From Pseudomonadota bacterium (GTDB taxonomy: Bacteria > Pseudomonadota > Gammaproteobacteria > Steroidobacterales > JBCBZW01), in assembly GCA_039193195.1 (NCBI GenBank), contig JBCCWS010000004.1, positions 101,908 to 165,907 of the forward strand: a stretch of 64,000 nt of DNA, written 5' to 3'. The translations under genes were made by a program, and so were the position numbers. The notes below the pieces were generated by a model, which saw only the letters and a list, made by a program, of their open reading frames with translations, searched no databases and was not told the DNA's origin. Positions 17,167-41,465 of the stretch are shown here, one piece after another (the first letter of the stretch is position 1; each line of letters begins with the position of its first letter).

Positions 17167-18099
17167 TCAGATGTGACCGGGTTCCCAGCAAATGGCCCGC
17201 ATTCCTTGCATCGGTCTTACCGTCCAGTGCGCGATCGCCCACGTTAGCACCTGCTGGACGGACGTTCGGCGAAGTTCGCTAGGTGGCTCTTGTTGCAGGA
17301 ACTGAAGAGCGCGAAATAGCAGCGGGGCTTCGGGCGCAACATCAATGGAAGTCGCACCGTCCTGCTTGCTTAGCTTATGAGCCTGGGCGTCGATAGCGAT
17401 CGGGATGTGCGCATAAGTGGGCATTGCTGCACCGAGTTGGCGCAGGAGCAGAAGCTGGCGGAAGGTCGACGGCAGCAGGTCTACGCCCCGAACGACATCG
17501 GTGATGCCTTGGGCCTGATCGTCGATGGCGACTGCTAGTTGATAGGCAAAGAGCCCATCGCGTCGGCGCACAACGAAATCGCCTAGATCGCGCACTGGAT
17601 CGGCCCGATGGAATCCCTGGATGCGGTCCGTGAAGGCGATCGGCGTGGGTGAAGCATCCGCGCACAAGCGCCAAGCGATGCCGATGGCAGGCCCGGAGAT
17701 CCGATCGTCGAGAGGGTGCAGGGCGCGTCCGCGACAGGTGCCCGGGTAGAGCGGGCCTTCGCTCGTCTGGCGAGTCGCGGCCTGGGCAATCTGTGTACGC
17801 GAACATTCGCAGGCGAAGAGGGCACCGGCGGTTTGTAGCCTTCGCAGAGCTTTCCAGTAGTGTGAACTACGGGCGCTCTGAAATGTGACCTCACCGTCCC
17901 AGTGCAGGCCTAGGCGTTCGAGTGAGCGTCGGATGGCGTCCGCAGAGCCGCGGCGTTCGCGCGGTGGGTCGATGTCCTCGATGCGTAGGAGCCAGCGGCC
18001 GCCGGCGGCGCGAGCGTCTAGGAAACTCGCCAGCGCAGCGGCGAGCGATCCAAAGTGCAGTGCCCCCGTGGGCGAGGGCGCAAACCTTCCGACGTACAA
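17167..18099 (-). CDS. gluQ: glutamyl-Q tRNA(Asp) synthetase
   Basis: GRFAPSPTGALHFGSL (HIGH-type motif), WLLRIEDIDPPRE, and HKLSKQDG (KMSKS-type motif). About 310 aa with no anticodon-binding domain. The adjacent dksA gives the conserved dksA-gluQ pair. Confidence 0.92.
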   Translation of the reverse strand: MYVGRFAPSPTGALHFGSLAAALASFLDARAAGGRWLLRIEDIDPPRERRGSADAIRRSLERLGLHWDGEVTFQSARSSHYWKALRRLQTAGALFACECSRTQIAQAATRQTSEGPLYPGTCRGRALHPLDDRISGPAIGIAWRLCADASPTPIAFTDRIQGFHRADPVRDLGDFVVRRRDGLFAYQLAVAIDDQAQGITDVVRGVDLLPSTFRQLLLLRQLGAAMPTYAHIPIAIDAQAHKLSKQDGATSIDVAPEAPLLFRALQFLQQEPPSELRRTSVQQVLTWAIAHWTVRPMQGMRAICWEPGHI

Positions 18100-18942
18100 T
18101 CAGCCCATCTGCCGCTCGCGAATCTCGTCGAGCGTTTTGCAGTCGATGCAGAGGGTGGCCGTGGGACGCGCCTCCAAGCGGCGGATGCCAATCTCGATGC
18201 CACACGTTTCGCAGAAGCCGTACTCGTGGACTTCCACATCGCCCAGCGCCTCTTCGATCTTCTTGATCAGCTTGCGCTCGCGATCTCGCGTGCGCAGCTC
18301 GAGACTGAATTCGGACTCCTGGGTGGCGCGGTCGTTGGGATCGGGGAAGTTCGCCGCTTCGTCCTTCATGTGGTGGACGGTGCGATCGACCTCTTCCATT
18401 AGGTCTTTCTTCCAAGCGAGCAATATGTTGCGGAAGTGTTCGAGCTGCTGCTCGTTCATGTACTCCTCACCCGGCTCCACCGTGTAGGGGATGATGCCGC
18501 CGACAAGCCGCGCACCGGGTTTCGGTGGCGGTGGTGCGATCGCGAGCGAGTTGTCATTGGACTTCGATGGGGTCGCAGTCCTGGCGACAGGGCGGGGAAC
18601 GGCGCGCGCGGGGACCGCCTTCGCTGGCGCCGCCGGTGTAGGCTTCTTCGCGGACGCTGCCTTCGCCGTCGCTTTCTTCGTCGGCTTGCTAGCCGTTGCT
18701 TTGCTAGTGGACGCTTTGCGAGCCGGTGCCTTCTTCGAGACTGCGGCCTTGCGTGACGGTGCCTTCTTCGAGGCCGTTGCGGCCGAGGCTGCTACTTTCT
18801 TCTTCTTGGTCGCCGTGGCGGCCTTCTTTTTGGTCGTAGCTTTCTTCTTCGCGGTGGTTTTTTTCGTCGACTTCTCAGATGCCGCTGTCACGTGTGTGCT
18901 CCGATCACCGATACCGCCCGAGGCGCGCATTGCGCTCGCCAA
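18100..18942 (-). CDS. dksA: RNA polymerase-binding factor DksA with a ~130-aa Lys/Ala/Thr/Ser/Pro-rich N-terminal extension
   Basis: C-terminal 150 aa: EPGEEYMNEQQLEHFRNILLAWKKDL...DPNDRATQESEFSLELRTRDRERKLIKKIEEAL...CETCGIEIGIRRLEARPTATLCIDC (coiled coil with acidic tip plus C4 zinc finger). No in-frame ATG/GTG/TTG lies between the tail and the DksA core. Candidate starts: TTG 18942, ATG 18930, or GTG 18891 (GGAG 7 nt upstream). Confidence 0.88.
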   Translation of the reverse strand: MASAMRASGGIGDRSTHVTAASEKSTKKTTAKKKATTKKKAATATKKKKVAASAATASKKAPSRKAAVSKKAPARKASTSKATASKPTKKATAKAASAKKPTPAAPAKAVPARAVPRPVARTATPSKSNDNSLAIAPPPPKPGARLVGGIIPYTVEPGEEYMNEQQLEHFRNILLAWKKDLMEEVDRTVHHMKDEAANFPDPNDRATQESEFSLELRTRDRERKLIKKIEEALGDVEVHEYGFCETCGIEIGIRRLEARPTATLCIDCKTLDEIRERQMG

Positions 18943-19095: not shown

Positions 19096-19509
19096 CTAAG
19101 GCAGTTGCACCGGAGCAGGAGCCTCCCAACCGGCAGCTCGATGCTCGACGACGACACTGGTGTAGATGCCGCCGCGCACGTTGAACTCGCCAGTCACGCG
19201 CATGAAGCGTGGAGATACGGCGGCCACCAGATCTGCCAAGATCTTGTTGGTGATCGCTTCGTGAAATGCGCCTTCCTCTCGGTAGGACCACATGTATAGT
19301 TTCAATGACTTGAGTTCCACGCAGCGCTGATCGGGGACGTAGTCGAGGTAGATCGTCGCGAAGTCGGGCTGGCCTGTCTTCGGGCACAGACATGTGAACT
19401 CGGGAATTCGCATGTGGATGGTGAAGTCCGTCCCCGGGTTGGGGTTGTCGAAGGTGTCCAGCTGCCGGCTCGGCCCGGCCGTCGGCGCCGTGGGTGTGGA
19501 GTCGCTCAT
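19096..19509 (-). CDS. queF: NADPH-dependent 7-cyano-7-deazaguanine reductase QueF (unimodular type)
   Basis: [50 protein letters not shown] contains the catalytic Cys and the QueF motif. I chose ATG 19509 (137 aa) over the track start 19719. Confidence 0.92.
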
Positions 19510-19756
19510 CAAGGTTGCCTCGGAGTTATGCGGGGCGCGATACTCGGCGGCTTGAACGCCACGCCGACGAAGTCTGTCGCGGGCGCACAATCTAAACCAC
19601 GCCGTTCCTGCACGCCACGGGGAAGCCCGCCAGGGCGCTGCAGCGTATGACGCAGCGCGGCATTGCGTCATCCCAGGGCGGAAGAGCCAAGGAAGCCACA
19701 GTAGACGTGCCGTACCCAATAAATCTCACAGGTCAGCGAGCACGACCGAGGCGTCA

Positions 19757-23278: not shown

Positions 23279-27096
<3,818 letters not shown>

Positions 27097-27128
27097 GAGC
27101 AACGATGTAAGTCGAAACCTACGAGTCT

Positions 27129-27151
27129 GGCGCGCTTGGATGCGGCGCGCC
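27129..27151. terminator. GC hairpin between convergent islet genes (possible bidirectional terminator)
   Basis: GGCGCGC (27129-27135), a 9-nt loop, GCGCGCC (27145-27151). No clear U-tract on either side. Confidence 0.3.
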
Positions 27152-27186
27152 CGCCGATTCGGTTAGAGGATCAAATACACGCTGCC

Positions 27187-28236
27187 CTAATATCCGATGA
27201 TCCGCTCGACCAGAGCAGGCCCGCTCGGGTCAGGCATAGTGCTAATAAAAGATACCAGATCGCCAGTGGGCAGATTTAGAGTTGGGTGATGTGCTAACAA
27301 CTGGGTCGTGTCCAGAAGCAGTTCGCCCACGCTGACCGAACCGCTATCGGATCGCGACAGGACTCCGGTCACTAGCGTCGGGCTAGCGCCTGGCACGTAC
27401 TGAGCGTTACACCTGGTCAGTTGATCAGCGAACACCACTCCGGAATCAACGATCACACCAGACAAAGCTATGTAGGCCCCCTCAGTCAATGTTATGGGGA
27501 CGCTTGTGTGAACGTGTTGTCCCAGCATACGGAAGTCTGATTTGCCGGTCACCTCTTCAATTTGGCCAAGCATTACAGGGTTGCTTACGGAGCATCCCAT
27601 ATCGCCCATTACGGCTTCAATAGCTTCCCCTAGCTCGAACCCCGTACCAACGATGGCACTCGGTTGCGGAGTGTCTTTGACGCTATCTAAGTGTTTTGGC
27701 GTCCCTGTTCCAACAATAGCTTGAATGAAGTGGTCGTCGGGCCGACCCGAGAACCCTGTCCCAACGATCGCCAACGGCGAATGGGCTGGATCAGTCACAT
27801 CCTCCGTGCGCGGGGCCGGGGCGCCGGTCCCCACAATGGCGCGAAGCTTTGGGATCGGTGCAACGCCTACCTTGGAGGTACCTGTCCCCACGATCACTGC
27901 GAGATCTGGAGTTGGAGGGTCCCACTTCAGGGGCGATCCTGTACCAACGATCGCTCGCAGCTTCGGGTCGGCATCGAAGCCTGCGCGTGGTGTGCCAGTT
28001 CCAACGATCGCGAAAGCTCGGGTGGCCGAGCCGTAAGCTAGTGGCTTACCAGTTCCCACAATGGCGAGCGGGCTAGCGCTGAACGAGGGGGCTCCGGTGC
28101 CCACGATAGCGTTGGGAGACGAACTAGAGATATCTTCGGTAGTAGTCGCTGAAAGAGCGTCAGTACAGAGAAAAACAGCCGTTACTGCTGCTAGGGCAGG
28201 TGCCGCCGCAGTACGCAGCTTGCATGAAACGCTCAT
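27187..28236 (-). CDS. secreted protein with nine (A/V)IVGTG repeats and a non-repetitive C-terminal domain; family unknown
   Basis: 349 aa. Sec-type signal MSVSCKLRTAAAPALAAVTAVFLCTDALSA|TTT. The ATG at 28236-28234 directly abuts the TAA of the upstream gene. The repeats are described separately. Confidence 0.8.
   Translation of the reverse strand: MSVSCKLRTAAAPALAAVTAVFLCTDALSATTTEDISSSSPNAIVGTGAPSFSASPLAIVGTGKPLAYGSATRAFAIVGTGTPRAGFDADPKLRAIVGTGSPLKWDPPTPDLAVIVGTGTSKVGVAPIPKLRAIVGTGAPAPRTEDVTDPAHSPLAIVGTGFSGRPDDHFIQAIVGTGTPKHLDSVKDTPQPSAIVGTGFELGEAIEAVMGDMGCSVSNPVMLGQIEEVTGKSDFRMLGQHVHTSVPITLTEGAYIALSGVIVDSGVVFADQLTRCNAQYVPGASPTLVTGVLSRSDSGSVSVGELLLDTTQLLAHHPTLNLPTGDLVSFISTMPDPSGPALVERIIGY
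27640..28110 (-). repeat. coding tandem-repeat region: 9 x (A/V)IVGTG hexapeptide with 9-17 aa variable linkers
   Basis: Motif starts at residues 43, 58, 76, 95, 114, 133, 156, 173 and 194. Copies use different synonymous codons (gccatcgttggtacgggg / gctattgttggaacaggg / gcgatcgttgggacaggg / gccattgtggggaccggc). Confidence 0.9.
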
Positions 28237-29133
28237 TTAGTCAGACTCCTCTTTTGTACCGTCGTCCTGAAACAGATACACACCGACGCCAAGCCGAATG
28301 TTCTGCGGCTTGGCTTCGCCCTCATCTTCCCTGGGATTCAGTTCCTCTCTGTCCGCCCAGTCCTCGAGTTTCTCCAAGAACCGTTGACCCTCTATCTCAA
28401 GGAAGTCACGAAAGTCATTAGTTAGGACGATCGGGAACTCCTCGCGAAGCATCGCGCGCTCAAATCGCGATTCGTCTGTGCGGCGAGGGTCAAGGTTGTG
28501 AGAGATGGTAGAAGCCAGATCATGTATCGCACCCCCGAAGTAACGCGCGCTGTCCGGGGCCAACGTAGTCATCTTGAATGACCGGCTGACTGCCCGATAA
28601 AGTCCATCGGGCAGCTCAACAACAGCGTTCACTCCCTTCAGCTCCTCGAGCATTGCTCGAGCAGGCATGTCTCCGCTGTAGCGGCGGACTAGCTCCGCGA
28701 AGCATGGCCCCTCCCCCTCAAGCGGGAGGTCGAGCGGTATGCCATAGGGCCCCACATAGTCGGTATCGCCGAACCAACCCTGCAGCACCCGGGTAGCTCG
28801 GTTCAGGCTTGTGGTGGGAATGACGTCGACGGCCTTGCCCTTAGCTGCGTCAAGGTGCCGCTTAACCTCCTTGCGCGTAAGGCCGGTGAGTATCGCGACG
28901 CGCGAACCGCTCCGCTTTCGCCCCTCTTGCGAGAAGTCGTTGTATGCCACTTCGACGTAGACGCTCTTAGCGACCTCCGCGAACTCGCCGTAGGCGACTC
29001 CGTTGGAGATCAACATGCGTACAAGCGGTCGCATGAGATGCCGGAAAGCAGCAAGAAGTCGCGTACGAAGACGTTTGGACTCGTCATCGGAGATGGCTGA
29101 CTCCGGACCGGTAGAGGTAGTTTTTTCATTCAT
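28237..29133 (-). CDS. uncharacterised HTH-like protein, islet paralogue 2 (first gene of a two-gene operon with the repeat protein)
   Basis: 298 aa. GRKRSGSRVAILTGLTRKEVKRHLD is an HTH-like segment. Paralogous to 26272..27096. Its stop TAA (28239-28237) is immediately followed by the next ATG, and GAGGAG in its last codons can serve as the downstream SD. Confidence 0.75.
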   Translation of the reverse strand: MNEKTTSTGPESAISDDESKRLRTRLLAAFRHLMRPLVRMLISNGVAYGEFAEVAKSVYVEVAYNDFSQEGRKRSGSRVAILTGLTRKEVKRHLDAAKGKAVDVIPTTSLNRATRVLQGWFGDTDYVGPYGIPLDLPLEGEGPCFAELVRRYSGDMPARAMLEELKGVNAVVELPDGLYRAVSRSFKMTTLAPDSARYFGGAIHDLASTISHNLDPRRTDESRFERAMLREEFPIVLTNDFRDFLEIEGQRFLEKLEDWADREELNPREDEGEAKPQNIRLGVGVYLFQDDGTKEESD

Positions 29134-30914: not shown

Positions 30915-31535
30915 ATGACACAGCATCTGAAGGTACACCCCGAGAACCCCCAGGAGCGCCTGCTGCGCCATGCGGTGGAGGCCCTACGAGGCGGCGGTGT
31001 CATCGCCTATCCAACCGACTCTTGCTATGCGCTGGCGTGCTTAATGGGCAGCCGCGACGCCATGGATCGTATCCGCAAGCTGCGCGGCAACCCCGATGAG
31101 CACTTCTTCACCCTGGTCTGTCGTGATCTTTCGGAGATCGCCACCTACGCGCGCGTGGATAACTCGGCCTATCGATTCATCAAGGCGCACACGCCCGGCG
31201 CCTACACCTTTGTGCTTCCTGCAAGTCGTGAGGTGCCCAAGCGACTGGCGGAGGGCAAGCGCCGCACGATCGGCCTGCGCGTGCCGCAGCACACGGTGGC
31301 GTTAGAGCTGTTGCGATTGCTCGGCGAACCTCTGATGAGTACCACCTTGCAACTGCCAGCGGACGACACGCCCTTGAGCGACCCCGAAGACATCGCCGAT
31401 CGCCTCGCTAAGCGCATCGATATCGTAGTTGACGGCGGTGCCTGCGGTTTCGCGCCCAGCACAGTCGTCGATCTCTCTGAGGATCCTCCCAGCATCCTGC
31501 GCTCGGGCAAGGCCCCGGTCGCAGGCACAATCTGA
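30915..31535 (+). CDS. yciO: L-threonylcarbamoyladenylate synthase-family protein (YciO/YrdC-like)
   Basis: GGVIAYPTDSCYALACLMGSRDAMDRIRKLRG...FTLVCRDLSEI...PGAYTFVLPAS...RRTIGLRVPQH matches the YrdC/YciO fold motifs. I chose ATG 30915 (206 aa). Confidence 0.88.
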   Translation: MTQHLKVHPENPQERLLRHAVEALRGGGVIAYPTDSCYALACLMGSRDAMDRIRKLRGNPDEHFFTLVCRDLSEIATYARVDNSAYRFIKAHTPGAYTFVLPASREVPKRLAEGKRRTIGLRVPQHTVALELLRLLGEPLMSTTLQLPADDTPLSDPEDIADRLAKRIDIVVDGGACGFAPSTVVDLSEDPPSILRSGKAPVAGTI

Positions 31536-31567: not shown

Positions 31568-32809
31568 GTGGCCACCGATGACGGTAGACGCCTCGTCTCG
31601 GGTATGCGCCCGGCAGGTCGACTGAACCTAGCGGACTACATCGGTATCCTAAACAGTTGGGTACAGCTCCAGCAGGAGCAGGAGTGCCTGCTGTTCCTGG
31701 CAGACTGGCACGCGCTCGCGGCGAGCTATGCACACACACGCGAGTTCCGCCAACGAATCAAGGACACACTGATCGATTGGTTGGCAGTAGGCATCGATCC
31801 CCGACTCGCCACCGTTTTCCTGCAATCGCGCGTGCCCGAGTGCGCTGAACTGAACGTGCTCCTCGGTATGTGTACGCCAACTGGATGGCTGGAGCGCCTG
31901 GTGGTGGCTCGCGGCGGAGAGCCAGCAGCGCCCGGGCTCTCGGTGCAAGCGTCGTCGTTGGACGCCGCAGCGGCAGACGGTGGCACCGTCGGACAGCTGA
32001 CTTACCCGCTTCTTCAGTGCGCGGACATTTTGCTCTACCAGCCAACGCACGTTTGCGTCATGGAGGAGCAAGCGGCGCACGTCGAATTCTGTCGCGACGT
32101 TGCCGGGCGCTTCAACCATCTGTTTGGCCGAGAAGAGGACGCCCAGAAGCACAACATGAGAGCTCTGAAGTCGCTTGGCAAACGCGCTAGCCAACAGCTG
32201 GAACAGCACCGACGCGATTTCCAGGAAAGAGGCGACGAAACGGCGCTTAAGGCCGGGTTGGCGCTGGTGAGCAACAGTCAGCACCTAACCTTGGGCGACC
32301 GGGATCGGTTGATCGCCTACCTGGAAGGCGGCGGTCGCTCGCTCCTGAGTGAGCCCGAAGCGGTGGTGGTGGGCAGTCTTCGCTTGCCTGGCACCGACGG
32401 CCGGCCGATGGCGCGCGAGTACGAAAACACCATCGAGCTACGGGACGAGCCCGAAGTCGTGCAAAGGAAGCTCCGTAAGATGCCCACTGATCCTGCCCGA
32501 GTACGTCGCAAAGACCCTGGAAACCCTGAAAAGTGCCCGGTCTGGCGGTATCATTTGCGGTTTGGCGACGATGCCAGCCAGAAATGGGTCTCCGAGGGTT
32601 GCCGCGGTGCAACTATCGGCTGCACCGACTGCAAGGCCCGCGCCGCAGAGGCCGTGGTCGCGCAGATCAGTCCCATTGCTTCGCGTGCCTCGGAGCTGGC
32701 AAGCCGCCCGGAAGTGGTCGGCAGCATTATCGTGGAAGGCAGCGAACGCGCCCGCGAGATCGCCAAGGACACCATGCGCAGCGTGCGACATGCGATGAGC
32801 CTGACCTAG
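31568..32809 (+). CDS. tryptophanyl-tRNA synthetase homologue with degenerate HIGH and KMSKS motifs (catalytic competence doubtful)
   Basis: 413 aa, collinear with Thermotoga/Deinococcus-type TrpRS: SGMRP.G, ADWHAL, GIDP, YPLLQCADILLY, LPGTDGR, TDPARVRRKDPGNPEKCPVW. At the catalytic positions it has GRLNLADY (for G-x-LHLGH), VCVMEEQ (for VPVGEDQ) and PMARE (for KMSKS). See finding. Confidence 0.8.
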   Translation: MATDDGRRLVSGMRPAGRLNLADYIGILNSWVQLQQEQECLLFLADWHALAASYAHTREFRQRIKDTLIDWLAVGIDPRLATVFLQSRVPECAELNVLLGMCTPTGWLERLVVARGGEPAAPGLSVQASSLDAAAADGGTVGQLTYPLLQCADILLYQPTHVCVMEEQAAHVEFCRDVAGRFNHLFGREEDAQKHNMRALKSLGKRASQQLEQHRRDFQERGDETALKAGLALVSNSQHLTLGDRDRLIAYLEGGGRSLLSEPEAVVVGSLRLPGTDGRPMAREYENTIELRDEPEVVQRKLRKMPTDPARVRRKDPGNPEKCPVWRYHLRFGDDASQKWVSEGCRGATIGCTDCKARAAEAVVAQISPIASRASELASRPEVVGSIIVEGSERAREIAKDTMRSVRHAMSLT

Positions 32810-32848: not shown

Positions 32849-33805
32849 ATGAGCGAGCAATCGAACACAGATCAGCAACACGCTGCGGCGTCGACCGAGG
32901 CCCAGCCGACGGAGGCGAGCGCGGAGCAGCGGCTCGAGCCTGAGGCGCAGCCGAGTGAATCCCTCGATGGCACCAGCGCTTCCCAAACCGAACTACCCTT
33001 CGCGTTCGTGGACGGTGAGCCGATCACCGAGCTACCGAAGGACTTGTTCATCCCACCCCAGGCACTCTCCGTCTTCCTCGAAGCATTCGAGGGGCCGCTC
33101 GACTTCCTGCTGTACCTGATCAAGCGGCAAAACCTGGATGTGCTCAACATCCCGATTGCCGACATCTCGCGCCAGTACACGGGCTACATCGATCTGATGC
33201 AAGACATGCAGCTCGAGCTCGCGGGCGAGTACTTGGTGATGGCCGCCACGCTGGCGGAGATCAAGTCCCGCATGCTGCTGCCCAGACCGGTAAGCGAGGA
33301 AGAGGATGAGGGCGAGGATCCGAGGGCTGAGCTCGTGCGGCGCCTACAGGAGTACGAGCGCTACAAGAACGCCGCAGAGCGGGTGGATGAGTTGCCTCGG
33401 ATGGAGCGCGAGAACTGGCCAGTATCAGCGCCCATGGTGGAGCGCACGGTGGTTCGCAAGCTGCCGGAGGTCACGCTCAAAGAGATGGTCGCGGCCTTCG
33501 GCGAGGTCATGTCGCGCGCGGAGTTGAATCAGCACTATCACATCCGTCGGGAAGCTCTGTCGGTACGCGAGCGTATGACCGAAATCCTCGATAACTTGCG
33601 CGCGGCGGAGTTCACCGAGTTTCGTGACCTCCTGCGCGCGGACCAGGGAAAGCAGGGGGTAGTGGCGAGCTTTCTCGCCGTACTCGAGTTGGCCAAGGAG
33701 TCGCTGATCGAGATCGTCCAATCAGGTGAATTCGCACCGATCCATGTGCGCGCGGCCGGCTCGGATAACCCGCAGCCCGCGGCGAGTGATGCAAGTACCG
33801 AGTAA
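32849..33805 (+). CDS. scpA: segregation and condensation protein A
   Basis: FEGPLDFLLYLIKRQNLDVLNIPIADISRQYTGYIDLM and MAATLAEIKSRMLLP form the ScpA kleisin signature. It has an acidic N-terminal extension. Confidence 0.92.
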   Translation: MSEQSNTDQQHAAASTEAQPTEASAEQRLEPEAQPSESLDGTSASQTELPFAFVDGEPITELPKDLFIPPQALSVFLEAFEGPLDFLLYLIKRQNLDVLNIPIADISRQYTGYIDLMQDMQLELAGEYLVMAATLAEIKSRMLLPRPVSEEEDEGEDPRAELVRRLQEYERYKNAAERVDELPRMERENWPVSAPMVERTVVRKLPEVTLKEMVAAFGEVMSRAELNQHYHIRREALSVRERMTEILDNLRAAEFTEFRDLLRADQGKQGVVASFLAVLELAKESLIEIVQSGEFAPIHVRAAGSDNPQPAASDASTE

Positions 33806-33831: not shown

Positions 33832-34836
33832 TTGGATACAGCTAAGCTGAGTCAGATCATCGAGGCCGCCCTAATGGCGGCGGGCCGCCCCCTGTCGACG
33901 AAGGATTTCGTTGGGTTGTTCGGGGAAGCGGAGCAGCCCCAAGCGCAGGACCTCGAATCCGCCATCAGGCTTCTCGAGCAGCGCCACGGCGAGGACTCGC
34001 CGTTGGAGTTGGTGAAGGTGTCGAGCGGTCACCGCCTGCAGGTCCGCACCGAATACAGTCCCTGGGTCAGCCGCCTGTGGGAGGAGCGCACGCCCCGCTA
34101 CTCACGAGCGTTTATGGAAACGCTCTCGATCATCGCGTATCGCCAGCCGGTGACGCGCGGTGACATCGAGGATATCCGTGGCGTCGGCGTTAGCAGCACG
34201 ATCATGCGCACGCTGCTGGATCGTCGCTGGGTTCGAGCCGTCGGCCACCGCGACGTCCCTGGGCGTCCCGCCCTCTACGGTACGACCCGCGAGTTCCTGG
34301 ACTACTTCGGGTTGTCTTCGCTCAGCGAACTGCCCGAGCTGGAAGAGCTACGCGACCTCGATCAGATCAATGTCGAACTCGATTTCGGTGACGGCGCCGC
34401 GAACGCTGAAGCCGCAACGCCGAGCGAAGGAGCGGCCGGAGCATCGCGAGCGGAAGGTGAAGCCGAGGCACCTGCCCTGGCTACGGTCACGCCGATCCGT
34501 CCCGGGGCCCTGGTTGGCGAGGCGAGCGACATCGAGGACGCGCTTGCGGCAGACACGCATGGCGATGGCACTGAGCCTGCAGAACATGAGCCGTCGTCCA
34601 ACGCACAAGACGTAACGACTGTCGCTGGCCAAGATAGGGAGTCGGCGGGGAACGGCGACGGCGACGACGTAGCAGCGCCAGCGTCAGATTCCTACGAAGC
34701 GGAGCCCGACTCGGAGGTCCTGGCTGACGCTGGCGAAGCAGGCGATGCCGTTGAGCACGATCACAAGCCTGCCGCAGAGCAGGCAGCTCAGCCCGATGCC
34801 AGCGATGACGACGACGAGCGCAACTCCGCGCAATGA
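33832..34836 (+). CDS. scpB: segregation and condensation protein B with a ~150-aa acidic C-terminal tail
   Basis: IIEAALMAAGRPLS...LSIIAYRQPVTRGDIEDIRGV...GRPALYGTTREFLDYFGL are ScpB winged-helix motifs. The tail is rich in D/E/A/G. Confidence 0.9.
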   Translation: MDTAKLSQIIEAALMAAGRPLSTKDFVGLFGEAEQPQAQDLESAIRLLEQRHGEDSPLELVKVSSGHRLQVRTEYSPWVSRLWEERTPRYSRAFMETLSIIAYRQPVTRGDIEDIRGVGVSSTIMRTLLDRRWVRAVGHRDVPGRPALYGTTREFLDYFGLSSLSELPELEELRDLDQINVELDFGDGAANAEAATPSEGAAGASRAEGEAEAPALATVTPIRPGALVGEASDIEDALAADTHGDGTEPAEHEPSSNAQDVTTVAGQDRESAGNGDGDDVAAPASDSYEAEPDSEVLADAGEAGDAVEHDHKPAAEQAAQPDASDDDDERNSAQ

Positions 34837-35693
34837 GGCGACCGCCAAGGCTCGCAGAGCCCCCCGAGCGCCTGCAGAAACTCCTGGCTGATGCGGGCAT
34901 CGCCTCGCGTCGCGAGGTGGAACGCTGGATTACTGAAGGGCGCGTGAAGGTCAATGGGCGCCAAGCTGAACTTGGCGAGAAAGCCACCCGTCAAGATCGC
35001 ATCGCCCTCGACGGCAAGCCCTTGCGACTTGCTCGCCGGGCCGCGGAGAGACGCGTCATCGCCTACCACAAACCCGCCGGGGAGGTGAGCACGCGAAGTG
35101 ACCCCGAGGGCCGCCCGACCGTGTATCAGCGCCTACCTAGGGCCGAACGCGGCCGTTGGGTGAGCGTTGGCCGCCTGGACGCAAATACGAGCGGCTTGTT
35201 GCTCTTCACTACCGACGGCGCCTTGGCCTCCAAGCTGATGCACCCTTCTCAGCGGGTAGAGCGTGAGTACGCAGTGCGCGTCCTGGGCGAGACCACTGAG
35301 GAGCAGCTGCAGCTGCTTACGCGGGGGGTCGAGCTCGAGGACGGTCCGGCGCGCTTCGATAAGGTGGTGCCCGCGGGGGCCAGCGGGGCCAACCACTGGT
35401 ATCACGTGGTCCTGCGCGAAGGTCGCAACCGCGAGGTGCGGCGCATGTTCGAGTCGATCGGCTGCGTAGTGAGCCGCCTGACGCGGGTACGCTACGGCCC
35501 AGTGGGGCTGAACCGTCGCCTGGCTAGAGGTCGCTGGGAAGAGGTGCAGGGCGATGCGTTAGAAGCGCTCTACGAGAGCGCCGGCCTTGAGAAACCGAGC
35601 CACGCACGTGGCCAGGAGGCGAGTAGGGGGCGCTTCAAGCGTCGAGTGCCCTCCCGTGCAAAGCGCGGTCCGCGGCCCCGAGGAGGTAGATGA
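34833..35693 (+). CDS. rluB: 23S rRNA pseudouridine synthase RluB
   Basis: S4 domain ERLQKLLADAGIASRREVERWITEGRVKVNG, catalytic GRLDANTSGLLLFTTDG, and a basic C-terminal tail. ATGA overlap with scpB. Confidence 0.92.
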   Translation: MRRPPRLAEPPERLQKLLADAGIASRREVERWITEGRVKVNGRQAELGEKATRQDRIALDGKPLRLARRAAERRVIAYHKPAGEVSTRSDPEGRPTVYQRLPRAERGRWVSVGRLDANTSGLLLFTTDGALASKLMHPSQRVEREYAVRVLGETTEEQLQLLTRGVELEDGPARFDKVVPAGASGANHWYHVVLREGRNREVRRMFESIGCVVSRLTRVRYGPVGLNRRLARGRWEEVQGDALEALYESAGLEKPSHARGQEASRGRFKRRVPSRAKRGPRPRGGR

Positions 35694-38655: not shown

Positions 38656-39325
38656 CGAACCAGCCGTGGCGCTCTAGCCACCGCGTGAACAGCGTGGGCG
38701 TGGCGCAGATCGCGTCCGCACCCCACTGGTCGATGACCTCGCCAGGCGCAATGTACCCCCAGGCTGCTGCCACCACGGGCATGGCCGCCCCTCGGGCTGC
38801 CTGGATGTCACGCTGATCGTCGCCACTGTAGATGCAGTTGGTGGCTTGCACACTCAGCAGTTCGGCCGCGTGACGTAGGGGAGCTGGGTCGGGTTTGCGC
38901 TGGGGCAGGGTGTCGCCGCACACCACGCATGGAGCTCGTTCTAGCAATGCCAGTCGCTCCAGCAGAGGTTCCGTTAGCCATGTCGGCTTGTTGGTGACGA
39001 TGCCCCAGGTGAGCGACGGATGCGCCTCGATTTGCCGCAGGAGCGCTTCGCATCCGTGGAACAGCGCCGAACCCTCGCAGACCCGTTCGGCGTAGAGCGT
39101 CAAGAAGCGCTGGCGCAGGGCCTCACGTTCGTCTTCCTGCGCAATATCCGGGAAGCCTGCGCTGATGAGACCGCCGGCACCACGAGAGACATGGGCCCGC
39201 GCAAAGTCCACGTCGCAGGCGCTACGCCCGTGCTCCTGGAGTAGACGTTGCAGGGCCCCGACCATGTCCGGCGCGCTGTCTAAGAGCGTGCCGTCGAGGT
39301 CGAAGAGGATGGCCCGTGAGATCAC
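38645..39325 (-). CDS. HAD-superfamily phosphatase (phosphoglycolate phosphatase Gph / MupP-like)
   Basis: ILFDLDGTLLDSAPDM (DxDGT motif I), GIVTNK (motif II), and YSGDDQRDIQAA (motif IV). It sits next to ubiG, as in Pseudomonas. Confidence 0.85.
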   Translation of the reverse strand: MISRAILFDLDGTLLDSAPDMVGALQRLLQEHGRSACDVDFARAHVSRGAGGLISAGFPDIAQEDEREALRQRFLTLYAERVCEGSALFHGCEALLRQIEAHPSLTWGIVTNKPTWLTEPLLERLALLERAPCVVCGDTLPQRKPDPAPLRHAAELLSVQATNCIYSGDDQRDIQAARGAAMPVVAAAWGYIAPGEVIDQWGADAICATPTLFTRWLERHGWFDAG

Positions 39326-40053
39326 GGGACCGGCTCTTGCAGCGCCGGGGCCACGTAGGCGGCCAGGTAGTTGACACTCACATCGTTACAGAGCTTGGCG
39401 CGTCGAACGAGAGGATCGTAGTGCATACCCCGCAGTTCCTGGAGAGCGAGTCCCGCGTCGCGGGCGGCCCCGTCCAGTTCCGAGGGGCGCAGGAACCGTG
39501 CGTAGTCGTGCGTTCCGCGCGGCAGCAGGCCAAGCACGTACTCGGCGCCAACCACTGCTAGAGCGTAGGCTTTCGCCGTTCGGTTGATGGTGGAGAGGAA
39601 CACGTATCCGCGGGGACGTACCAGTCGAGCACACGCGTGCACAACGGCGGCGGGCTGCGGTACGTGTTCGAGCATCTCTAGGCAGGTGACGAAATCGTAG
39701 CTACCCGGGTGCTCGTCAGCGAGGGTCTCGGCGGTGGATAGCTCGTAGCGCAAGGGGAGCTTAGGGGTGAGGGTCGCATGAGCCTTCGCTGCCCGGATGG
39801 CCGCCTCGCTCATGTCTATGCCCAGCATCGTAGCACCAGCCCGAGCTAACGCTTCCGTAAGGATGCCACCCCCGCAGCCGATGTCCACCCCACGTTGGCC
39901 AGCCACCGGCACGTGGGAGCGGATAAAGTCGAGTCGCGCGGGATTGATATCATGGAGCGTGCGAAAACCACCATCATCGCGCCACCAGTCCTCCCCGAAG
40001 GCATCAAAGTGGCCGATTTCTGCGGCGTCCACGTTCGGCGAGGTACGGGTCAT
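39322..40053 (-). CDS. ubiG: bifunctional 3-demethylubiquinol 3-O-methyltransferase / 2-polyprenyl-6-hydroxyphenol methylase UbiG
   Basis: Collinear with E. coli UbiG: NVD..EI..F......WW...G.F..LH.INP.RL.FI, VDIGCGGGILTEALA, CLEMLEHVP, TINRT, AVVGAEYVL...PRGTHDY. The chosen ATG 40053 makes an ATGA overlap with the mtaD stop. Confidence 0.93.
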   Translation of the reverse strand: MTRTSPNVDAAEIGHFDAFGEDWWRDDGGFRTLHDINPARLDFIRSHVPVAGQRGVDIGCGGGILTEALARAGATMLGIDMSEAAIRAAKAHATLTPKLPLRYELSTAETLADEHPGSYDFVTCLEMLEHVPQPAAVVHACARLVRPRGYVFLSTINRTAKAYALAVVGAEYVLGLLPRGTHDYARFLRPSELDGAARDAGLALQELRGMHYDPLVRRAKLCNDVSVNYLAAYVAPALQEPVP

Positions 40054-41465
40054 TGGGGAGCATCCGTTGGCTGTCGGTCGCGCCGCAACCGCTGCGCCCA
40101 ATCATCGGCACTGGCGAGCACCGCGTTGAGATCGAGGCGAGTCGGTTGGCCGCCTTCCAGCAGCTGCCTGCCCGCCACCCAGACGTGGTCCACCTGAGCG
40201 GCGGCGGTGGCGTAGGCAAGTTGAGAGACGGGGTTGTGGATCGGCTGGGTGGCGGCCTGGCGCCAGTCGATGCTGATGATGTCGGCCCACTTTCCCGGCG
40301 TGAGACTGCCCGTTTGGTCGCCGAGGCCGAGCGCCCGGGCGCCGTTGATAGTTGCCATTTCGAGAACCTTCTTGGCCGGTACGACTGCGGGGTCCGCGGC
40401 CACGTGCTTGGCGAGGAAAGCGGTGCTGCGCAGCTCAGCGAACATGTCCAGGTCGTTGTTGCTGGCGGCTCCGTCTGTGCCGATAGCGACGTTCACTCCC
40501 GCCGCAACCAACGCTGCCACCGGGCACGCACCGCTGGCGAGTTTCATGTTCGACTCGGGGCAATGGACTACATGGCATCCGCGCTCAGCGAGAGCGTCGA
40601 TCTCGCCCGCCTGCAGCTGGGTCATGTGCACCCCCATGAGCAACGGCGAGATCATGTCGAGCTCAGCCAACTTCTCGATGGGGCGACAACCGTAGCGTGC
40701 GGTGAATTGCTCCAACTCGTCGGTGGTTTCGTGCAGATGGGTTTGGATCGGCACGTCGAGCTGGTCGGAAAGGCGGCGGATTCTCGCCATCGAGTCCGGG
40801 GATACGGTGTAGGGAGCATGGGGCGCGAACATCGTGCTCACCAGCGCGTCGCCCTTGTACTCATCGCGCATGGCCAAGCCCTTGGCGAGGTACTCGTCGA
40901 GGTCGCTAGCCCAGGGCGTGGGGAAGTCGAAGGCGACCATGCCAATACAGGCGCGAATGCCGGTTTCAGCTGCTACCTGCGCGGTTGCGTCGGGGAAGAA
41001 ATACATGTCTGCGAAGCAGGTCGTCCCGGAGCGGAGCATCTCGGCGATCGCTAGCTGGGAGCCCGCTCGCACGTAACCTGGTCCGACCCAGCGCCTCTCG
41101 GTTGGCCAGATATGATCCTCGAGCCAACGCATGAGCGGGAGATCGTCCGCCATGCCCCGCAACAGGGTCATCGCCGCGTGCGTGTGCGCATTGACGAGCC
41201 CAGGCATCAGCACGTGTCCCCCCAGCTTGATCTCTTCCTTACCCTGATAGCGCTGGCGGGCCTCGTCGGCGGGGCAGACCGCCGCGATGCGTCCGCCTCG
41301 CACTGCTACGGCGCCCCCAGCCATGGCATCCGGGTGCACAGTCTCGTCGACGGGCACAACCCAATCGGCGAAAAGTAGCGTGTCTACGGGTTCCATCGGC
41401 GCTCCGGCAACGGACGAGCGGGCCACGATGCCGGACCCGCTGGGGGACGGCAAGGGTCGGGCCAT
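40050..41465 (-). CDS. mtaD: 5-methylthioadenosine/S-adenosylhomocysteine deaminase (amidohydrolase, MtaD-like)
   Basis: LMPGLVNAHTHAAMTLLRG (HxH metal motif), HLHET, and HCPESNMKLASG. Adjacent to ubiG, as in Pseudomonas. The start may instead be ATG 41396 (MEPVDTLLF). Confidence 0.85.
   Translation of the reverse strand: MARPLPSPSGSGIVARSSVAGAPMEPVDTLLFADWVVPVDETVHPDAMAGGAVAVRGGRIAAVCPADEARQRYQGKEEIKLGGHVLMPGLVNAHTHAAMTLLRGMADDLPLMRWLEDHIWPTERRWVGPGYVRAGSQLAIAEMLRSGTTCFADMYFFPDATAQVAAETGIRACIGMVAFDFPTPWASDLDEYLAKGLAMRDEYKGDALVSTMFAPHAPYTVSPDSMARIRRLSDQLDVPIQTHLHETTDELEQFTARYGCRPIEKLAELDMISPLLMGVHMTQLQAGEIDALAERGCHVVHCPESNMKLASGACPVAALVAAGVNVAIGTDGAASNNDLDMFAELRSTAFLAKHVAADPAVVPAKKVLEMATINGARALGLGDQTGSLTPGKWADIISIDWRQAATQPIHNPVSQLAYATAAAQVDHVWVAGRQLLEGGQPTRLDLNAVLASADDWAQRLRRDRQPTDAPQ

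Follow-up and report, generated by a model that had tools for sequence, protein, structure and literature searches.

A trpS orthologue in its housekeeping slot with a dismantled ATP site and a retained tryptophan pocket, anticodon-binding domain and Cys4 motif

Introduction

A gene that sits where the housekeeping trpS is expected, and whose product carries none of the class I catalytic signatures, raises a simple question: does the protein still charge tRNA(Trp), or has it taken on another job? The gene considered here is an open reading frame (ORF) on the forward strand, positions 31568-32809, of a 64-kb stretch of DNA (contig JBCCWS010000004.1 of assembly GCA_039193195.1, positions 101,908 to 165,907; "the window" below means this whole stretch). 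It encodes 413 aa from a GTG start, with a Shine-Dalgarno-like GGGAG about 10 nt before it. We refer to the product as the degenerate TrpRS (tryptophanyl-tRNA synthetase). A sequence-only reading of the locus had proposed either a pseudo-synthetase or an unusually divergent active enzyme. The analysis below favours the first of these: the degenerate TrpRS probably no longer charges tRNA and has another job. We give a probability of roughly 0.6 to a reading in which this TrpRS-derived protein binds tryptophan and tRNA(Trp) and makes no Trp-AMP, charging being left to an unlinked TrpRS.

Results

Loss of the ATP-binding signatures

The protein matches the family PF00579 at 2e-40 (Pfam), and its top match in the PDB is Thermotoga maritima TrpRS (2g36, 3e-76 by phmmer), which bears out the earlier assignment to a Thermotoga-type TrpRS. 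An AlphaFold2 (AF2) model with a mean pLDDT (predicted local distance difference test score) of 83.3 and a pTM (predicted template modelling score) of 0.76 has a TM (template modelling) score of 0.90 to 2g36 in Foldseek; both the class Ic Rossmann fold and the helical anticodon-binding domain are present. The generic model TIGR00233 is passed (202 versus a cut-off of 176.75), whereas the score of 481 bits against the equivalog model for canonical TrpRS, NF008922, lies below the cut-off of 572. All members of the clade described below score 446-506 bits on that model, and canonical relatives score 725-781.

31568-32809 (+): trpS-derived coding sequence (PF00579), Thermotoga/PRK12283 [4Fe-4S] subfamily, from Pfam, NCBIfam, the PDB match and the AF2 model

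No gaps fall around the motifs when the protein is aligned to 2g36 with HMMER: GKLHIGH is matched by GRLNLAD, VPVGEDQ by VCVMEEQ and GRKMSKSY by GRPMAREY. The motifs are thus correctly registered, and misregistration, an error that the sequence-only reading had allowed for, is rejected. GRLNLADYIG (residues G17-G26, 31616-31645), PMARE and the cysteine span all lie where that reading had placed them. We extended the comparison to an alignment of 121 sequences, made up of 114 canonical relatives and seven members of a degenerate clade that includes the protein from the window. Among canonical relatives HLGH is present in 113 of 114, KMSKS in 113 of 114 and VG[EA]DQ in all 114; in the degenerate clade all three motifs are altered in every one of the seven members. 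Both alignments uphold the description of HIGH, VPVGEDQ, PTYK and KMSKS as degenerate, and the clade-wide count answers the question of whether the changes are confined to one sequence: they are lineage-wide.

31625-31636 (+): HIGH remnant N20-L21-A22-D23 (canonical H-L-G-H), by alignment; Asp23 fixed in the clade
31898-31990 (+): connective peptide 1 (CP1) loop, LVVARGG plus an Ala/Gly/Ser/Pro-rich segment, in place of the canonical 23-aa VPTYKDQQE... segment
32051-32071 (+): VPVGEDQ remnant V-C-V-M-E-E-Q, by alignment; Gln retained
32405-32419 (+): KMSKS remnant P-M-A-R-E (P280-E284), by alignment; Pro280 fixed, positions 282-284 variable

The changes take different forms at different sites. 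Across the clade the HIGH site reads [NH]L[AG]D, with positions 1, 3 and 4 changed and the fourth fixed as Asp; two members have HLGD. The invariant lysine of PTYK is replaced by Arg115 throughout the clade. In the GEDQ block Gly165 becomes Met, Val, Pro or Ser, position 166 is Glu, Pro or Gly, and Asp167 is Asp or Glu. The KMSKS site reads PMARE, PMSHQ, PMTHR or PMASE: the first Lys is a fixed Pro, the first Ser is Ala, Ser or Thr, the second Lys (283) is Arg, His or Ser, and the second Ser (284) is Glu, Gln or Arg. Between WLER and YPLLQ lies an Ala/Gly/Ser/Pro-rich segment of 35-90 aa that is unalignable and hypervariable in length. AlphaFold predicts disorder here (pLDDT about 27-30, and below 50 at residues 119-144); residues 282-284 of the KMSKS remnant also fall below 50.

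In all, 11 ATP- and pyrophosphate (PPi)-site positions are altered in the degenerate TrpRS, which has none of the HIGH forms HLGH, HIGH, HLGN or TIGN, and neither a KMSKS loop, a GEDQ block nor the CP1 lysine. Judged by the alignments, every element that grips the ATP triphosphate is replaced: HIGH, the PTYK lysine loop of CP1, the Gly and Asp of GEDQ, and KMSKS. The free variation at formerly catalytic positions argues that these positions no longer do chemistry. A further set of residues is newly fixed in the clade (D23, R115, Q143, D177, T276 and R279-P280); this points to remodelling of the site, probably for a new function, more than to mere decay.

Remodelling could also mean that the protein is still the sole and active TrpRS, with an ATP site rebuilt so that Arg115, Arg279 and Arg/His283 stand in for three lysines and Asp23, possibly by way of Mg2+, for the last His or Asn of HIGH. 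We regard this as unlikely, though it is an alternative to be taken seriously. The fixation of the derived D23, R115 and P280 (with R279) across the clade speaks for it, and some ArgRS and eukaryotic TyrRS and TrpRS enzymes function with a partly non-canonical KMSKS. Set against it are the would-be catalytic positions themselves, since 165, 166, 283 and 284 all vary within the clade, and the exchange of the GEDQ Gly for bulky or rigid residues. The hypervariable, disordered insert also occupies the CP1 loop, which in GsTrpRS bears the lysine for the ATP gamma-phosphate (PMC8814664). Selection by an inhibitor of the ATP or adenylate site might account for a rebuilt site of this kind.

A single lineage shares the degenerate state

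To find relatives we searched 5.8 billion proteins, of which the best 120 of 8000 matches were listed. A protein identical to the degenerate TrpRS comes from an NCBI metagenome-assembled genome (MAG; MEM9384618.1, 'Pseudomonadota bacterium', 276,936-bp contig). The closest relatives, P0002 and P0121, are about 89-90% identical (P0121 is MEO0421020.1, GCA_039815145.1), and P0003 to P0006 have 58-59% identity by BLASTP, or 60-62% in a MAFFT alignment. Beyond these, identity drops to thousands of canonical TrpRS of about 400 aa, at 52% or less. Orthologues at 59-90% identity are therefore as degenerate as the window's own, and canonical motifs appear only at 51% identity or below, so the possibility, raised in the sequence-only reading, that close orthologues would be canonical did not materialize.

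The seven degenerate sequences are monophyletic with 100/100 bootstrap support in a neighbour-joining (NJ) tree, on a stem branch of 0.23, and their root-to-tip distances are 0.90-0.99 versus 0.63-0.73 for canonical sequences. Searched against 1.84 billion cluster representatives at 50% identity, a profile of the clade found the whole clade as one representative (785 bits), and the runner-up, with 513 bits, was a canonical TrpRS. No other clade with both motifs lost was convincing among the 150 best representatives, where the remaining odd motif states resemble fragments or frameshifted calls; this too stands against a sole, active enzyme. None of the 509 relatives in GTDB representative genomes is more than 51% identical to the degenerate TrpRS, which indicates a lineage without a representative genome in that collection. 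The adjacent yciO delimits the same lineage: YciO identity is at least 78% in clade members, and the next values are 68% and 64%. Neighbouring genes are closest in identity to Aquisalimonadaceae and Ectothiorhodospiraceae-like gammaproteobacteria, and the group as a whole is small and uncultured.

The canonical sequence that matches the degenerate clade best (451 bits, 50% identity) is P0007, from a 3,580-bp JGI contig. It has HLGN in place of HLGH, keeps KMSKS, scores 725 bits on NF008922, and may represent the nearest canonical lineage.

The frame of the gene is intact in every copy recovered, from two NCBI MAGs, four Logan assemblies and at least 11 JGI metagenomes. One clade member recurs in at least 11 of the JGI metagenomes, among them on a 562,647-bp contig (IMG 3300056928 Ga0558101_00048), and its trpS is everywhere intact and hardly varies. 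At the population level the P0004 lineage shows just 1-6 differences per gene, too few for an estimate of pN/pS (the ratio of nonsynonymous to synonymous polymorphism). The public records of P0003 and P0006 are N-terminally short since their gene calls start at the internal Met of SGMRP (L098 3695, L099 3524). In both cases the frame ahead of the called start still encodes the N-terminal strand RVVSG/RVLSG, whose apparent loss is rejected as a start-codon miscall.

Selection and rate

Between the window and GCA_039815145.1 the gene has a dN (nonsynonymous divergence) of 0.058, a dS (synonymous divergence) of 1.07 and a dN/dS of 0.054, within the range of neighbouring genes in the same genome pair (0.015-0.165); this is not the behaviour of a pseudogene. 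Constraint is strongest in the N-terminal Rossmann half, where dN/dS (omega) is 0.02.

Over longer distances the constraint is weaker. Canonical TrpRS across beta- and gammaproteobacteria are 64-83% identical, about 10-12 points above neighbouring genes, whereas the degenerate TrpRS shares 46-51% identity with canonical sequences, 6-9 points below its neighbours. Clade pairs with a YciO identity of 79-83% have a TrpRS identity of 59-62%; canonical pairs with a YciO identity of 80-90% have a TrpRS identity of 82-96% (median 86%). At matched divergence the degenerate TrpRS thus changes at about three times the rate of its canonical counterparts. The gene is under strong purifying selection, with a long-term constraint about threefold weaker than that on the canonical gene. 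A sustained rate rise of about threefold is not expected in a sole essential synthetase, although the dN/dS values would fit such an enzyme.

The same data bear on whether the gene is a decaying pseudogene or an artefact of assembly or sequencing, a reading that could draw on the lost signatures, the low-complexity CP1 insert and the score below the equivalog cut-off. It is extremely improbable. Against it stand the dN/dS of 0.054 at a dS of about 1.07, the intact frames across MAGs, Logan assemblies and JGI metagenomes, the same derived residues fixed among members just 59-62% identical, and the retention of canonical-invariant columns detailed below. Dn/dS, invariant-column retention and intact frames together effectively rule out a pseudogene or artefact; sequencing or assembly error is rejected also by the occurrence of the same state in seven sequences and more than 15 assemblies.

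Parts that are kept

The loss is targeted: it is limited to ATP/PPi-binding positions and spares the tryptophan pocket, the anticodon-binding domain and the Cys4 motif. Residue roles were transferred from GsTrpRS (PMC8814664) and T. maritima TrpRS (TmTrpRS; PMC2954223). All 12 pocket positions (GsTrpRS F5, I8, V40, H43, Q80, Y125, M129, D132, I133, V141, V143 and Q147) are kept, including the indole-N ligand, Asp153. In TmTrpRS a [4Fe-4S] cluster is bound by C-x(21-24)-C-x6-C-x2-C and contacted by Arg224 (PMC2954223). The corresponding C323, C345, C352, C355 and R311 are invariant, and the spacing at 32534-32632 confirms the earlier description of an intact C-x21-C-x6-C-x2-C motif.

32003-32032 (+): tryptophan-pocket segment YPLLQCADIL (Y146-L155), conserved; Asp153 = GsTrpRS D132 / TmTrpRS D136
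32483-32509 (+): PTDPARVRR block of the anticodon-binding domain, in invariant columns; R311 equivalent to TmTrpRS Arg224
32534-32632 (+): Cys4 motif C323-x21-C345-x6-C352-x2-C355, [4Fe-4S]-type, invariant in 121 of 121 aligned sequences
32129-32347 (+): charged helical insert of about 73 aa (residues 188-260) between the Rossmann fold and the KMSKS loop, by alignment and AF2

To place the losses along the protein we took the 174 columns with 97% or higher conservation among canonical sequences. In 107 of these canonical-invariant columns all six clade members compared keep the identical residue, with the following distribution.

Anticodon-binding domain: 35 of 40 kept
Helical insert: 13 of 16 kept
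N-terminal Rossmann half: 34 of 60 kept
Residues 142-187: 18 of 32 kept
KMSKS loop region: 7 of 16 kept
CP1 loop: 0 of 10 kept

The charged insert had been listed among the peculiarities of this protein. Its presence at residues 188-260 holds, and the model predicts helices at 192-253 with pLDDT 77-94. It is also found in all canonical relatives of about 400 aa (NF008922/PRK12283 type), and as a trait of every canonical subfamily member it lies outside the anomaly and is rejected as a novelty.

A lost ATP site beside a conserved anticodon-binding domain is the pattern expected of a non-catalytic subunit in a heterodimeric TrpRS, since class Ic enzymes bind tRNA across the dimer and such a subunit would give only its anticodon-binding domain to a competent paralogue. 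CP1, which is the most disrupted part of the degenerate TrpRS, contributes to the dimer interface of class Ic enzymes and so speaks against this arrangement. A purely anticodon-binding subunit would also have no use for a fully conserved tryptophan pocket; no partner gene is known, and none of the same subfamily from the same MAGs was found among the best 120 of 8000 matches. There is precedent for a division of labour of this kind: the two subunits of the obligate TmTrpRS dimer share the work, one activating tryptophan and the other reading the anticodon (PMC2954223), and in trypanosomatid TyrRS the C-terminal pseudo-monomer has ARAVL in place of KMSKS, with both halves required for activity (PMC8319005). 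On balance we consider the heterodimer very unlikely.

Genomic slot

In the window and on every relative's contig the gene order is ispA(-), then yciO, the degenerate trpS, scpA, scpB and rluB, then an SDR gene (-). A canonical trpS occupies the same slot in a Pseudomonadales MAG (GCA_036405915.1) and in Nitrosococcus halophilus Nc4. The housekeeping context yciO-trpS-scpA-scpB-rluB noted earlier is thus common to the window, its relatives and canonical genomes. Because the same slot is held by canonical trpS, the gene is, by synteny, the positional orthologue of housekeeping trpS and not an extra paralogue; the extra-paralogue reading is rejected. Origin as a foreign island is rejected as well, given a GC content of 0.61-0.63, similar to the flanks, and conserved synteny.

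30915-31535 (+): yciO (Sua5/YciO/YrdC family), 32 nt 5' of the degenerate trpS, left neighbour in canonical and degenerate lineages
32849-33805 (+): scpA, conserved right neighbour
33832-34836 (+): scpB, conserved right neighbour
34833-35693 (+): rluB, conserved right neighbour

The spacing of scpA, scpB and rluB looks operon-like. Scans with Rfam and for tRNAs found no leader and no T-box element near the degenerate trpS, and a promoter and terminator scan gave background level only. A tblastn search with four queries found no second trpS within the 64-kb window. This, and the single ancestral trpS slot, count in favour of a sole, active TrpRS, as do the intact pocket and tRNA-binding domain.

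Other observations in and around the window

ScpB (33832-34836, +) has a C-terminal tail of about 140 aa (about residues 190-334) rich in Ala, Asp, Glu and Gly. With the CP1 insert, this tail points to a lineage prone to growing low-complexity segments that are acidic or rich in Ala, a tendency that a halophile-like composition may explain.

In a variant of the P0004 lineage (JGI 3300058688 Ga0556254_004734, L093 258-3408), an island lies upstream of yciO. It carries an AAA_21/AAA_15/DUF3696 ATPase, an RNA-ligase-family gene and an HNH_2 nuclease, and ispA is cut to 60 aa. The island beside the yciO operon looks like a defence-type insertion.

At 26158-29133, between ligA and bolA/YCII, a gene without annotation (about 350-396 aa) has a DUF6502 gene on either side. 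This arrangement is conserved in the degenerate-lineage contigs that show that flank (L002, L006, L088, L090 and L091) and absent from the canonical-lineage locus L004.

The gene at 17167-18099 (-) encodes a 310-aa protein with the GluRS/GlnRS catalytic domain only (PF00749, 4.6e-42). It adjoins dksA (18100-18942, -) and a QueF-like gene, with 19096-19719 (-) in the same group, an arrangement typical of GluQRS/YadB, which would make it a second synthetase-derived gene in the window. The dksA ORF encodes 280 aa, with DksA domains from residue 166 onward; either the protein has a long N-terminal extension or a TTG start has been placed too far upstream. Lastly, a 95-nt tRNA-Ala(CGC) called by ARAGORN at 39388-39482 (-) lies inside a methyltransferase ORF (39322-40101), falls below the threshold of the Rfam tRNA model and is probably a false positive.

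Discussion

Together, the results describe an ancestral housekeeping trpS that, in its original slot, would have been converted into a non-aminoacylating TrpRS-derived protein. The degenerate TrpRS combines lost catalytic signatures with purifying selection, the combination by which pseudo-enzymes derived from aminoacyl-tRNA synthetases are recognized. In the mechanism that we propose, the protein would have lost the formation of Trp-AMP at a useful rate, and a second, unlinked and probably horizontally acquired TrpRS would charge tRNA(Trp). Organisms with several TrpRS genes, of which one alone bears the Fe-S motif, have been reported (PMC2954223), so two-TrpRS genomes of such a kind exist. 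The degenerate TrpRS would have been retained for binding the CCA anticodon of tRNA(Trp) along with L-tryptophan or the tryptophan carried by Trp-tRNA, and would act as a dimeric Fe-S factor that binds both. It could serve as a sensor of tryptophan or uncharged tRNA, as a factor that sequesters or chaperones tRNA(Trp), or, by analogy with cyclodipeptide synthases (CDPSs), as a reader or processor of Trp-tRNA.

Several points weigh against this reading. No second TrpRS was seen in the 64-kb window, which was the scope of the search. Some of the substitutions conserve charge or shape, which makes a rebuilt ATP site possible: K115R keeps the charge, position 167 is Asp or Glu, Arg279 is fixed beside the lost Lys280, and the HLGD of two members is one Asn-to-Asp step from HLGN, a common functional TrpRS variant. 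Active IleRS2 demonstrates that a class I enzyme can work with an altered HIGH (PMC10485003), and the omega of 0.02 for the Rossmann half between the two closest genomes would fit a working active site as well. The cellular role outlined above is one that we infer. What tips the choice between pseudo-synthetase and divergent active enzyme towards the first is the confinement of loss to the ATP/PPi site, the variability of catalytic positions and the roughly threefold rate; the second we hold with lower confidence. The bolder form of the second, in which the degenerate TrpRS is the only TrpRS and, lacking a working HIGH, KMSKS, CP1 lysine and GEDQ glycine, charges tRNA(Trp) by means of an Arg/Asp-based and possibly metal-assisted ATP site, strikes us as decidedly unlikely.

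Comparison with known systems helps to define what sets the protein apart. T. maritima TrpRS (TM0492, PDB 2g36) shares its fold (TM score 0.90), the tryptophan pocket with its indole-N Asp, PTDPARVRR, the Cys4 motif and the cluster-contacting Arg, and proteobacterial relatives of about 400 aa (NF008922/PRK12283) share also the helical insert and the genomic slot. The degenerate TrpRS differs from T. maritima-type enzymes in the replacement of HIGH, the PTYK lysine loop, GEDQ and KMSKS, and in its disordered, variable CP1 insert; TmTrpRS charges tRNA efficiently (PMC2954223). The double-length TyrRS of trypanosomatids, an asymmetric pseudo-dimer, resembles it in having a class Ic module without KMSKS (ARAVL), retained for anticodon recognition (PMC8319005). 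In that eukaryotic protein dead and live modules are fused in one polypeptide, whereas the degenerate TrpRS is bacterial, is encoded by a gene of its own in the ancestral location and has an intact tryptophan pocket. IleRS2 offers a class I signature motif that is likewise naturally altered across a lineage, but there HIGH alone is permuted and the enzyme is demonstrably active (PMC10485003); here HIGH, GEDQ, the CP1 lysine loop and KMSKS are all altered, some at variable positions.

The degenerate TrpRS is the orthologue itself, in the ancestral slot, with its ATP ligands lost, and in this it differs from HisZ, GluQRS/YadB and PoxA/EpmA. These synthetase-derived bacterial proteins are selected for jobs other than tRNA charging, but they are extra paralogues beside a canonical gene and most of them still activate an amino acid with ATP. 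CDPSs are a model for a tryptophan pocket without an ATP site, by analogy and not by membership. They are class Ic-derived Rossmann domains that have lost HIGH and KMSKS, keep the aminoacyl pocket and use aminoacyl-tRNA in place of ATP and an amino acid. They measure about 230-300 aa, are without an anticodon domain or Fe-S motif, have their own Ser/Tyr/Glu catalytic set and usually lie in biosynthetic clusters. No such traits were found in the degenerate TrpRS, which is full-length, has an intact anticodon-binding domain and belongs to a housekeeping operon. By the same analogy, its fixed Asp23 and intact pocket may serve a new, CDPS-like reaction on Trp-tRNA(Trp).

A literature search for a catalytically dead bacterial TrpRS, or for a TrpRS orthologue with dismantled class I signatures, found none; publications on the topic comprise papers on Fe-S TrpRS and general work on aminoacyl-tRNA synthetase paralogues. 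Synthetase-derived proteins as such are already known, usually as extra paralogues, and what is new here is an in-place housekeeping orthologue with a dismantled ATP site. Were the degenerate TrpRS after all the only TrpRS, and active, it would be an exception to the requirement for HIGH and KMSKS in class I synthetases, as neither class-defining signature is present. If it is a pseudo-enzyme, as we favour, then pipelines that annotate it as 'tryptophan--tRNA ligase' may introduce errors into genome completeness estimates and metabolic models. It would also mean that another gene can take over the essential function of TrpRS and leave the original one to be repurposed where it stands. What the cluster does in the Fe-S TrpRS family has been unclear since 2010 (PMC2954223). 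The degenerate TrpRS would be a natural separation-of-function variant of that family, and a protein selected solely for non-catalytic functions would make the role of the cluster testable.

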